A stretch of 64,000 nucleotides of DNA from an uncultured Clostridia bacterium (lineage in GTDB: Bacteria; Bacillota; Clostridia; Christensenellales; CAMQZB01). The position numbers and the translations under genes were made by a program. Location: the NCBI GenBank assembly GCA_964406735.1, contig CAYOSU010000004.1:1782-65781 (forward strand), given 5' to 3'. Shown one piece after another: positions 1 through 1,979 of this stretch. Under the pieces are notes generated by a model. That model ran no database searches, was not told the origin of the DNA, and saw only the letters and a list, made by a program, of their open reading frames with translations. Within the stretch, counting starts at the first letter, position 1; each line of letters starts with the position of its first letter.

Positions 1-107
1 TGATTAAAGCAATCTTTTTTTGTTTTGGCGTAAGTATATACTCGTTTGCCTTTGTAGAGAAAAGAACCCTCGTACTGATTGCCTTTCAGGCGGATATTGC
101 AAAACAT
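1..107 (-). CDS. N-terminal fragment of a probable tyrosine integrase (arm-type DNA-binding N-terminus); gene runs off the left edge
   Basis: Minus-strand ATG at 105-107, 3 nt after the stop of the upstream ORF. Translation MFCNIRLKGNQYEGSFLYKGKRVYTYAKTKKDCFN resembles the G.Y.G.F...GKR...Y.KTKKE arm-binding N-terminus of phage/ICE integrases. Only 35 codons are visible. Confidence 0.4.
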   Translation of the reverse strand, partial: MFCNIRLKGNQYEGSFLYKGKRVYTYAKTKKDCFN

Positions 108-110
108 AGG

Positions 111-566
111 CTATAAGTCCAAGTCCTCGATAGACGTATACACGGTATTCCACTCTTCGGCGGAGTAGTTGTGAGTAAGCATTTGCGGACTTTCTTTTTT
201 ATAATTTTTTCTTTTATTTATTATATTTATATTATTCTCTGCGACATTTTTGTCACGGGGTGGTGACATTTTTGTCACGAGGGGGTATGACACGATACGA
301 CGAGATAAAATCTCTTTTGAGTTCTCTTTATAGATGACCTCGATAGTTATATATTTTTTATCCGAAAGCGAAGCGAGCCAACGTTGAATAGTCCTGTTAT
401 CTACGTTAAAAAGTTCTGCGAAATATTTGTTGCTTGCAAAGCAATAGCCTTTGGCGTTGGATAAAGCGGTAATCTCCGCAAAAAGAAGTTTAGCGTTAGC
501 GTGCAGCTCTTTATCGTAACGAACGTTTGCAGGAATAACGGCATAGAAATTACATTGCATATCCAT
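111..566 (-). CDS. Helix-turn-helix protein of the DnaD / replication-initiator-like type found on phages and plasmids
   Basis: 151-aa ORF. N-terminal YAVIPANVRYD...AKLLFAEITALSN.KGYCFASN.YFAELFNV..RTIQRWLASL is the typical winged-HTH module of mobile-element replication/primosome proteins. Its start overlaps the upstream stop (TAATG coupling). Confidence 0.6.
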   Translation of the reverse strand: MDMQCNFYAVIPANVRYDKELHANAKLLFAEITALSNAKGYCFASNKYFAELFNVDNRTIQRWLASLSDKKYITIEVIYKENSKEILSRRIVSYPLVTKMSPPRDKNVAENNINIINKRKNYKKESPQMLTHNYSAEEWNTVYTSIEDLDL

Positions 567-805
567 TACAGCACCTCGTCAAGCCAATAGGCGAAGAAAT
601 CACAGCTGCAAGGTATAACGCTCTCTAAAACGTCTATCTCGTCAAAAGTAAGTCTACCGTCTTGCTGTAAAAGAGCTATAAGCTCATTAAAGCGACATAA
701 AGCACCGCCGTTGAGTTTATCATAAGCAATGCTATCTTCGAAAGTGGTATCACTTTCAAAAGCAAGGCGTAGTACGCTACCGACCTTTAACCGAAAATTT
801 TTCAT
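566..805 (-). CDS. Hypothetical small protein (mobile-element context)
   Basis: ORF in the track is 566-841. I prefer the internal ATG at 803-805 (MKNFRLKV...), which has GGAG about 10 nt upstream. Its stop overlaps the start of the downstream gene. Confidence 0.45.
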   Translation of the reverse strand: MKNFRLKVGSVLRLAFESDTTFEDSIAYDKLNGGALCRFNELIALLQQDGRLTFDEIDVLESVIPCSCDFFAYWLDEVL

Positions 806-952
806 TTTTTTACTCTCCTGTGGGTATTTGGCATACACCATTATGGCGTATATATTGAGAATATCACGCCAAAGTGGAGTATGTCAAGGAAATAACACCA
901 CAAAGGAGTAAAATACGATATATGAGGCGATTTTGACGTCTGAGGAGGGTTT

Positions 953-1156
953 ATGAATAAGTTTGCAGAAAGATTGACCGAAGAACTCAAAGTAAAAGAG
1001 ATTAGTCAGAATAAATTTGCGAAAGTGATACAAGTAAATCAGCAAACCGTCAATAGATGGTGCAATGGTGATAGAGAGCCTAATTTTGATATGCTCGTAA
1101 CGATATGCAAGGAGTTGGATATATCTGCGGATTATCTACTCGGGATAGAAGACTAA
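953..1156 (+). CDS. XRE-family (Cro/CI-type) HTH transcriptional regulator
   Basis: 67 aa. ISQNKFAKVIQVNQQTVNRWCNGDREPNFDMLVTICKELDISADYLLG is a canonical HTH_3 domain. RGGAGG RBS; divergent from the replication-type genes. Confidence 0.85.
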   Translation: MNKFAERLTEELKVKEISQNKFAKVIQVNQQTVNRWCNGDREPNFDMLVTICKELDISADYLLGIED

Positions 1157-1190
1157 AACGGTAACAGGGGAAATAAAGCTGTTAACCGAA

Positions 1191-1223
1191 GGGTCGTCTG
1201 TTCAAACCAGACAGGGGGAGCCA
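1191..1223 (+). other. Orphan 3' fragment of a tRNA (T-arm, acceptor 3' strand, GCCA); putative att scar
   Basis: GTCTG-TTCAAAC-CAGAC (T stem/loop), then AGGGGGA, discriminator G and CCA. No matching 5' acceptor strand, D-arm or anticodon arm upstream, so this is not a complete tRNA. Confidence 0.6.
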
Positions 1224-1224
1224 A

Positions 1225-1250
1225 AAGCCTAGGTATTTCCTAGGCTTTTT
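1225..1250 (+). terminator. Rho-independent terminator
   Basis: AAGCCTAGG / CCTAGGCTT stem followed by a T-run, directly after the tRNA-like 3' end. Confidence 0.7.
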
Positions 1251-1497
1251 CTTTACGCAAAAACGGGTAAAAAGGCATAAAAAATACTCAATTGTGGAAA
1301 ACGACCGACGAGAAAACGTAGATAAAACCTAACAAAAACGGCACAACAAAAAATCTAATTGTGGAAAAAATACAAAAAGGTGCCATAAAAAGCGTATGAA
1401 ATAGCGTAAGAAAATACTCCTTTCTGCTGTTTATCGGATTTGTCGGGGCATTTAAAGCTATTGCAGTTGCAAATATGGTTTTGAGACTGTACATTTT

Positions 1498-1544
1498 TGT
1501 CGAATAATGTCGAAAATTGTCAAATTTCAGAAGATTTTGTCAAA
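1498..1544 (+). promoter_or_regulatory. Array of Spo0A-box heptamers (2x TGTCGAA, 2x TGTCAAA) with 10-bp phasing
   Basis: TGTCGAA at 1498-1504 and 1508-1514; TGTCAAA at 1518-1524 and 1538-1544. The array abuts the -35 of the downstream promoter. Confidence 0.55.
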
Positions 1545-1545
1545 A

Positions 1546-1576
1546 TTGACAAAAACCGAAAGAAATATGCTATAAT
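1546..1576 (+). promoter_or_regulatory. Sigma-A type promoter of the Spo0A_C gene
   Basis: TTGACA 1546-1551 and TATAAT 1571-1576. The spacer is 19 nt, which is long. TG lies 1 nt upstream of the -10. Confidence 0.45.
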
Positions 1577-1616
1577 ACATTCGTTTATAAATTATTTTAC
1601 AAAGGAGTGTATTTGT

Positions 1617-1979
1617 ATGGAAACATATATTTCAAATTTTTTACTGCAATGTGGTTTTTCTAAAAAGCATTGCGGATACCAATATTTGCATAATGCGATA
1701 ATGATCTATATCATAAACGGACTTGACGTGCGTATATTGGGAAGTCCTCTGTACGAGATATTGAGTGTGATTGCAAATGACAAATCGCCCAAGACCATTG
1801 AAAAGAACATCACGACTGCAATAGAGTGGGCGTATCTCAAAGGAGATATGGACTTTTTGGAGAAGAACGACATGTACGGGTTTAACGAGCGTGGCAGACC
1901 GACGAACGGTGAATTTATTGCGCTTGCCGCAACGAAGATCGCATATAAGATGTTACATAAGAGAATAGATAACAGATAG
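1617..1979 (+). CDS. Stand-alone Spo0A C-terminal (DNA-binding) domain protein, no receiver domain
   Basis: ATG 1617 with AAGGAG RBS. GYQYLHNAI, IEKNITTAIEWAY and RPTNGEFIA align with the GYLYLREAI / VERAIRHAIEVAW / KPTNSEFIA blocks of B. subtilis Spo0A residues ~150-260. Confidence 0.8.
   Translation: METYISNFLLQCGFSKKHCGYQYLHNAIMIYIINGLDVRILGSPLYEILSVIANDKSPKTIEKNITTAIEWAYLKGDMDFLEKNDMYGFNERGRPTNGEFIALAATKIAYKMLHKRIDNR

Follow-up and report, generated by a model that had tools for sequence, protein, structure and literature searches.

The stretch of DNA analyzed here, 64,000 nt from an uncultured Clostridia bacterium (Christensenellales, CAMQZB01; assembly GCA_964406735.1, contig CAYOSU010000004.1; G000:C4:1782-65781) and called the window below, carries near its left end a gene for a 120-aa protein (1617..1979, + strand, ATG 1617, stop 1977-1979) that was identified as a Spo0A_C coding sequence by Pfam, by its PDB match and by its AlphaFold model. 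In endospore formation, Spo0A is regarded as a universal master switch that is gated by phosphorylation. The gene is preceded by a ribosome-binding site, AAAGGAG (1601-1607, + strand, 9 nt ahead of the ATG), by a promoter with a row of 0A boxes and, further to the left, by the end of an integrated element. It is concluded that the window gene encodes a receiver-less Spo0A effector-domain protein, that it is chromosomal and evolves under purifying selection, and that it does not belong to the cargo of the element.

The protein covered the Pfam Spo0A_C profile (PF08769) over positions 1-104/104 with 60.2 bits and an E value of 2.2e-16, the gathering threshold of this profile being 25 bits. A sequence search of the PDB returned 1LQ1 and 1FC3 at E 3e-7. 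The AlphaFold (AF2) model of the 120-aa protein (pLDDT 91.7) consisted of six helices, including a helix-turn-helix, and Foldseek found 1FC3 and 1LQ1 as its only PDB matches (E <= 0.002, TM 0.73-0.85). By score, full profile coverage and six-helix fold, the protein is a member of the PF08769 family. It is not a Spo0A proper in the sense of the TIGR02875 equivalog, since the receiver (REC) domain, the score and a canonical recognition helix are all missing: the match to TIGR02875 was limited to profile positions 149-257 and reached 45.3 bits, below the cut-off of 200 bits. No Response_reg match was obtained in the Pfam search, and the protein begins 4 residues ahead of the Spo0A_C domain. An earlier reading of the bare sequence, the first-pass annotation, had taken CDS 1617-1979 for a Spo0A effector domain without a phospho-receiver and had suggested a Spo0A_C profile search; the Pfam and TIGR02875 results bear this reading out.

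The N-terminus of the protein (ME..IS.FLLQCGF) is kept in relatives. Two other gene models were considered and dropped. A 160-aa open reading frame from TTG 1497, in which the boxes would be coding, was rejected because both ATG 1617 and the ribosome-binding site ahead of it are conserved; it is also contradicted by the orthologues, whose frames open just 5-11 codons 5' of the ATG and in which the region aligns as promoter. A public gene call of 92 aa (P0003), starting at Met29, was rejected because helix 1 (residues 2-11) is conserved and was modelled with a pLDDT of ~95. Compared with its orthologues, the window gene showed a dN/dS of 0.09-0.12 for the window lineage.

Upstream of the gene, four 0A boxes are found, all of them on the + strand; from one box to the next, the starts advance by 10, 10, and 20 bp. 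Box 1 (TGTCGAA, 1498..1504), box 2 (TGTCGAA, 1508..1514), box 3 (TGTCAAA, 1518..1524), and box 4 (TGTCAAA, 1538..1544) are located at ~-85, ~-75, ~-65, and ~-45 from the inferred transcription start, respectively. Box 4 abuts a -35-like TTGACA (1546..1551, + strand) and forms, together with 1546-1554, a 9-bp inverted repeat TTTTGTCAA/TTGACAAAA. An extended -10, TGcTATAAT (1568..1576, + strand), follows the -35-like hexamer after 19 nt; the promoter scan was limited to spacers of 16-18 nt and hence did not list the TTGACA/TATAAT pair. The four heptamers, the TTGACA, and the spacing in multiples of 10 bp had been placed correctly in the first pass.

The promoter was aligned with four others, namely those of locus L057, locus L060, the orthologue in genome G001, and a second short copy in the window's own genome that is linked to spoIVB (copy 2). 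TATAAT was invariant in 5/5 promoters. Box 2 was the best-conserved box: L060 has 1 mismatch in it, and the other four promoters carry it exactly. Box 1 is kept in L060 and degenerate in L057. Box 3 is common to the window and L057 and reads CGTCGCA in copy 2. In the column of box 4, L060 and G001 have TGTCGAA and copy 2 has TGTCTTG, and L057 has lost the box. Additional boxes fill the 10-bp steps between the ~-75 and ~-45 positions. In the -35 column the orthologues have GGAGGT, TGGGAT, and ACTGCT, and a good hexamer is present only in the window and L057.

The boxes are conserved and go beyond chance, as expected of a 0A-box promoter. In the window TGTCRAA was counted 30 times versus 18.6 ± 4.7 in shuffles, and 4 of these 30 lie within 47 bp. 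The window promoter is the sole cluster of at least three boxes in the 1.59-Mb genome (593 boxes, both strands). An exact forward TGTCGAA was found at -143 to -70 of the start codon in 9/9 short genes of the window's family (f1), at a whole-genome background of ~9e-5 per base and strand for the exact heptamer, and in the related genus G005 the short gene is preceded by TGTCGAA, TGTCTTG, and TGTCAGT at 10-bp steps. Therefore, the upstream heptamers are regarded as a non-random, conserved 0A-box array, through which Spo0A, the short protein or both could plausibly control the gene. The other, two-box clusters of the genome were inspected as a possible regulon; most of them are located inside coding sequence or beside unrelated genes and were uninformative.

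The first box lies 83 nt and the gene ~200 nt past the repeat at the end of the integrated element. From this neighbourhood the first-pass annotation had derived an element-borne, constitutively active Spo0A mimic, with which the element would read or manipulate the sporulation decision of its host. The att-like tRNA scar on which this idea was built is indeed present. An intact tRNA-Asn is located at C4:59-133, at the start of the contig, and a direct repeat of 238 nt with 100% identity connects C4:88-325 with C4:2959-3196, the second copy corresponding to window 1178-1415. This right-hand copy (1178..1415, + strand) is the attR side and the end of the element; it opens with 46 nt (1178-1223) from the 3' part of the tRNA-Asn, so that the repeat is composed of the last 46 nt of the tRNA gene and 192 nt downstream of it. 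With 238 nt at 100% identity, the repeat is unusually long for an att core. The read depth over 1178-1415 was ~2x in runs X1 and X3, and loose contig ends showed both junctions.

The window gene itself, however, lies outside the 238-nt repeats and is kept at sites without the element. In loci L057 and L058, which encode a 95% identical protein, the sequence begins inside an intact tRNA-Asn and leads straight into the spacer, the boxes and the gene known from the window, followed by a small gene and then by genes for a rhamnosidase, PfkB and an isochorismatase. An 11-kb contig from the metagenome of run X4 (depth 45) likewise joins an intact tRNA-Asn directly to 1178-2600; it shows zero differences to the window over 1416-2233, has an identical promoter and coding sequence, and the depth of the element in this run is close to zero. 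The isochorismatase flank is also retained by the L060 orthologue, at 77% identity. Because of these empty sites and the shared right flank, the gene is assigned to the chromosomal side, right of the att site. Its right flank is common to orthologues in other species, and it is nested in a clade of chromosomal, syntenic genes. Element genes (integrase, HTH_36 protein, 91-aa ORF and XRE repressor) do adjoin the gene, and only the view of it as their cargo, taken in the first pass, has to be given up.

Support for an element-borne mimic could further be sought in phage records. Truncated receiver-less spo0A homologues have been described on human-gut phage/virome contigs (Schwartz et al. 2023, mBio, PMC10294663), PF08769 is reported to be enriched in mobile elements of gut Firmicutes (Jiang et al. 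2019, PMC6907783), and phrog_24603 of the PHROG collection matches the window protein. A search of a phage collection gave ten matches with 30.5-35% identity, so that no match exceeded 35%. The four matches that were examined, MT835614, MT835504, MT835715, and MT836727 (loci L073-L076), are human faecal virome scaffolds labelled 'UNVERIFIED: Bacteriophage sp.' and turned out to be bacterial chromosomal fragments. In L074-L076 spoIVB is located upstream of spo0A, in L074 and L076 together with recN and argR, and in L073 a full-length spo0A is surrounded by genes of metabolism and transport. Three of the four scaffolds thus carry a full-length Spo0A and one carries a short gene in an argR-recN-spoIVB cluster. 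Since they are chromosomal fragments, their spo0A genes are not evidence of phage carriage. With the phage- or element-borne truncated Spo0A proteins the window gene shares the receiver-less domain, but it is not located inside an element and does not move with one, and the mimic is considered very improbable.

The neighbouring features are as follows. The window contains the right part of the 2.87-kb integrated mini-element (1..1177), recognized by Pfam and PHROG matches, with genes for a replication-type (initiator-like) HTH_36 protein (111-566, - strand) and an XRE repressor (953-1156, + strand), and for the 91-aa ORF (566-841, - strand); the tyrosine integrase gene (C4:914-1888) lies just left of the window. 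Upstream of the HTH_36 gene, a tandem 22-nt repeat, GACATTTTTGTCACGGGGTGGT then GACATTTTTGTCACGAGGGGGT, was observed at 243-286 (L004 2024-2067), which is iteron- or operator-like. A 12-nt direct repeat, AATTGTGGAAAA, is present at 1290-1301 and 1357-1368 within the 238-nt duplicated segment. As it is also found downstream of the intact tRNA-Asn in L057/L058, it belongs to the chromosomal/att segment and is no relic of the element. The next gene to the right (2100-2492) has a MerR/excisionase-like N-terminus and an in-frame TGA at 2148-2150 where an intact ORF of 134 aa in L057 has GGA (Gly). The contigs of four metagenome runs showed no variant at the TGA, which looks like a real nonsense mutation in the window lineage.

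Three genes with a Spo0A_C domain are present in the genome. One encodes the full-length Spo0A (257 aa, contig C1), and the other two are the window copy and the 118-aa copy 2. Copy 2 is located at G000:C4:72904-73261, 69.5 kb from the window gene, and its product is 74% identical to the window protein. It is flanked by SpoIVB (Peptidase_S55 + PDZ) on one side and by SpoIIM and then a DacB-type carboxypeptidase on the other. The window copy does not lie in a spoIVB/spoIIM cluster; its flanks are the tRNA-Asn on the left and the MerR-like pseudogene, rhamnosidase, PfkB and isochorismatase genes on the right. By tree placement it belongs to an order-wide clade of short proteins, although it is not positioned between spoIVB and spoIIM/dacB, and it is concluded to have arisen by duplication of the short spo0A paralog and to have been relocated.

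A Spo0A_C match was obtained in 39/41 genomes of the same order, and 25/41 have one in an open frame of less than 200 codons; the genomes with such a short frame usually also encode a Spo0A of 250-300 aa. With tblastn on fetched loci, SpoIVB, SpoIIM and/or DacB were detected beside short genes in loci from at least 8 families. On the MT835614 scaffold the order is NAD kinase, argR, recN, spoIVB, short gene, spoIIM, dacB. The argR-recN-spoIVB-short gene-spoIIM-dacB locus is the ancestral, classical position of spo0A, and in three other families (G006, G010, G011) a full-length Spo0A directly follows spoIVB. Two of these genomes, G010 and G011 (loci L008 and L010 and their second copies), have two full-length Spo0A genes, one after spoIVB and one elsewhere. 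These gene pairs suggest that the duplication came before the loss of the receiver in the spoIVB-linked copy.

In a tree of the C-terminal domains, a quick search on 124 columns that does not settle the deep forks, 24 short proteins formed a clade apart from the full-length proteins with 98% SH-aLRT support. Within it, the window protein and the spoIVB-linked copy of the same genome fell into a sub-clade (97%), and the genes linked to tRNA-Asn/isochorismatase (window, L057, P0002, L060, and the G001 gene) grouped together at 94%. Protein P0004, which is 90% identical to copy 2, is encoded in a spoIVB-spoIIM-dacB cluster of a further sample, which comes from the same study as L057 and L060. Related strains have therefore retained both types of paralog. 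Between the window copy and copy 2, synonymous sites have reached saturation. Taken together with the dN/dS of the window gene, this indicates that the duplication is old and that both genes have been maintained.

With a profile of the short family, 11,434 cluster representatives were recovered at E <= 1e-3, and many of these have a single domain and a length of 111-151 aa. Among metagenomic proteins (P0013, P0015, P0019, P0055, P0027), chains with 2-6 tandem Spo0A_C domains occur; examples are a 454-aa protein with four and a 959-aa protein with six domains. One protein of 1003 aa combines three Spo0A_C domains with Sigma70_r4 and three RNA polymerase alpha-CTD domains.

The full-length Spo0A of the genome is encoded on the reverse strand at G000:C1:~132,983-133,756 (L001 1483-2256), and its G001 orthologue at L077 800-1561. 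It keeps the canonical helix SKVER..RHAI, as do the full-length Spo0A proteins of the same order. Downstream of ftsZ, the spoIIGA promoter has TTCGACA in its -35 region, and spoIIE has TTCGACC. Judged from these two promoters, the canonical 0A box is in use elsewhere in the organism.

The recognition helix of the window protein, the equivalent of alphaD, was assigned from the 1LQ1 alignment, the model helices and the family alignment to model helix 58-75 (1788..1841, + strand). The window protein has PKTIEKNITTAIEWAYLK where Spo0A reads ASRVERAIRHAIEVAWSR. That this helix differs from Spo0A had been noticed in the first pass and is correct, also for the shifted segment KTIEKNITTAIE vs SRVERAIRHAIE of Spo0A that was compared there. 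In the alignment, K-T-I-E-K-N-I-T-T-A-I-E stands opposite the canonical S-R/K-V-E-R-A-I-R-H-A-I-E; in B. subtilis numbering E213 is retained, and R214K, A215N, R217T, and H218T are substituted. Across the short clade the motif T-I/V-E/D-K-x-I-T/Q is conserved in the family alignment, which argues for a DNA specificity that would be retained but altered.

Outside this helix, GY.YL, G227, (R/K)PTN.EFIA and the C-terminal FIAxxAxK helix are conserved in the window protein, as is E213. The helix that follows the recognition helix has diverged, and MDFLEKNDMYGF aligns to the IDSISSLFGY of Spo0A, a segment known from B. subtilis as the sigma-A-activating region. A protein with this region altered might act as a competitive antagonist that occupies 0A boxes without activating RNA polymerase, weakens or delays Spo0A-dependent transcription and so puts a brake on sporulation. 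Lacking a receiver it would be active whenever it is made, and the two copies in the genus would raise its dosage. Yet G227 and the C-terminal FIAxxAxK helix are conserved, and the fact that many families have kept the gene in a sporulation cluster points to a positive role in development, so that an antagonist appears improbable.

The reading favored here, by analogy with B. subtilis, is that the phased-box promoter is switched on by full-length Spo0A and that its product is a phosphorylation-independent regulator with modified specificity; it is regarded as reasonably probable. Spo0A-activated sigma-A promoters such as spoIIG and spoIIE of B. subtilis combine a good -10 with a poor or mis-spaced -35 and phased 0A boxes. 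The window promoter would correspondingly be an activator-dependent promoter of the sigma-A type, with a good -10, a poor or mis-spaced -35, and boxes from ~-85 to ~-45. Full-length Spo0A would line up on the phased boxes in tandem units of head-to-tail orientation. The boxes are 10 bp apart, in agreement with the tandem, head-to-tail binding in 1LQ1, and for this reason activation by full-length Spo0A is favored. Its binding would switch the short gene on at the entry into sporulation. Without a receiver, the product would need no phosphorylation to work as a DNA-binding regulator of the second tier with modified specificity, and its targets, in a feed-forward or feedback manner, would be Spo0A-box promoters, perhaps its own among them.

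Several observations weigh against activation by full-length Spo0A or against a role of the product at 0A boxes. The perfect TTGACA together with the extended -10 could give substantial activator-independent transcription in the window strain, and a search for RNA evidence returned only DNA gut-metagenome runs holding the window sequence. No clear 0A box was found upstream of the full-length spo0A of the genome. The receiver of this full-length Spo0A is degenerate, its acidic pair being S-N (N-N in G001) and its Lys being replaced by Y (F in G001), and no Pfam Response_reg match was obtained for the full-length Spo0A of the genus; from these residues, Spo0A may not be phosphorylated in the window's genus. 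In other genera of family f1 the receiver Lys is present and one Asp of the acidic pair is missing, and G002 has Ser at the phospho-acceptor position. On the side of the short protein, R214K, R217T, and H218T might weaken or abolish binding to 0A boxes. Finally, the box is absent from 7/7 short genes examined outside family f1, so that boxes occur only in the one family with the short-protein helix KTIEKNIT(T/S/C)AIE, a pattern that fits autoregulation equally well.

In the case of autoregulation the short protein would bind the phased boxes itself, with or without Spo0A, in a positive feedback (commitment switch) or a negative one (homeostasis). The boxless short genes of other families carry the helix xTI(E/D)KxIQNA(I/V)S, although full-length Spo0A is equally conserved everywhere, and in f1 E213 is kept and R214 is replaced conservatively by K. 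Moreover, spo0A of B. subtilis is itself autoregulated through 0A boxes. However, two basic residues of the Spo0A recognition helix are replaced (R217T, H218T), and no independent set of similar box arrays, which could represent a candidate regulon, was found elsewhere in the genome. Autoregulation is considered a serious alternative, if a rather unlikely one.

A more far-reaching scenario can be outlined, which is put forward as speculation and is unlikely to be right in all its parts. In this order of gut Clostridia, the spo0A gene of the ancestral recN-spoIVB locus would have lost its receiver and become a second-tier regulator independent of phosphorylation, and a relocated full-length paralog would have become the master switch, the receiver of which is degenerate in the window's genus. 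The short gene would have been duplicated there, with both copies behind phased arrays, and entry into sporulation would be gated by a transcriptional cascade or feedback among Spo0A-family domains and not by a phosphorelay.

Receiver-less Spo0A copies have so far been discussed as cargo of phages and mobile elements, whereas here one is a conserved chromosomal gene of a sporulation cluster. This points to a second layer in sporulation initiation across many families of uncultured gut Clostridia. In the window's genus, the putative order-wide second regulator of the Spo0A family has been duplicated and stands beside a full-length Spo0A with a degenerate receiver. The account of an element manipulating the sporulation of its host is corrected: the element is merely a neighbor that inserted at tRNA-Asn. 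Caution is also needed with public records, as at least some virome entries of 'phage-borne spo0A' are chromosomal spoIVB-spo0A fragments.

In the literature searched, neither a receiver-less Spo0A paralog conserved on the chromosome beside spoIVB nor the 0A-box promoter of such a gene was found to be described. One survey of sporulation genes notes no more on spo0A paralogs than that some genomes have two or three of them. The Spo0A_C domain and the receiver-less architecture are already known; the conserved chromosomal lineage, the locus and the promoter architecture appear to be new.

Compared with known systems, the window protein has the same six-helix fold with helix-turn-helix as Spo0A-C of Bacillus and Clostridia (PF08769; 1FC3, 1LQ1), the profile of which it covers from end to end. 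In contrast to the Spo0A proteins of Bacillus and Clostridia, it has neither receiver nor linker and belongs to a clade separate from the full-length Spo0A proteins of the same genomes. The spo0A genes of phage contigs (PMC10294663) have the same effector-only architecture and follow the same logic, in that no phosphorelay signal is needed; unlike phage- and element-borne spo0A (PMC10294663, PMC6907783), the window gene is chromosomal and vertically inherited. Its promoter resembles the tandem-0A-box promoters of B. subtilis (abrB, spoIIG, spoIIE, and spo0A Ps) in the heptamer TGTCGAA, the tandem spacing of 10 bp, a helical turn, as for the head-to-tail Spo0A-C dimer in 1LQ1, and the boxes reaching the -35, and as at the activated spoII promoters a good -10 is combined with a poor or mis-spaced -35 (19 nt). 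It differs from these classical promoters in having up to four or five phased boxes and in that the controlled gene is itself a Spo0A paralog. A stand-alone effector-domain regulator is known from B. subtilis sporulation in GerE, which consists only of a helix-turn-helix of the LuxR/FixJ type. By analogy, the window protein would be a receiver-less DNA-binding output domain whose activity, like that of GerE, is set by the timing of its transcription, although the two fold families are unrelated.

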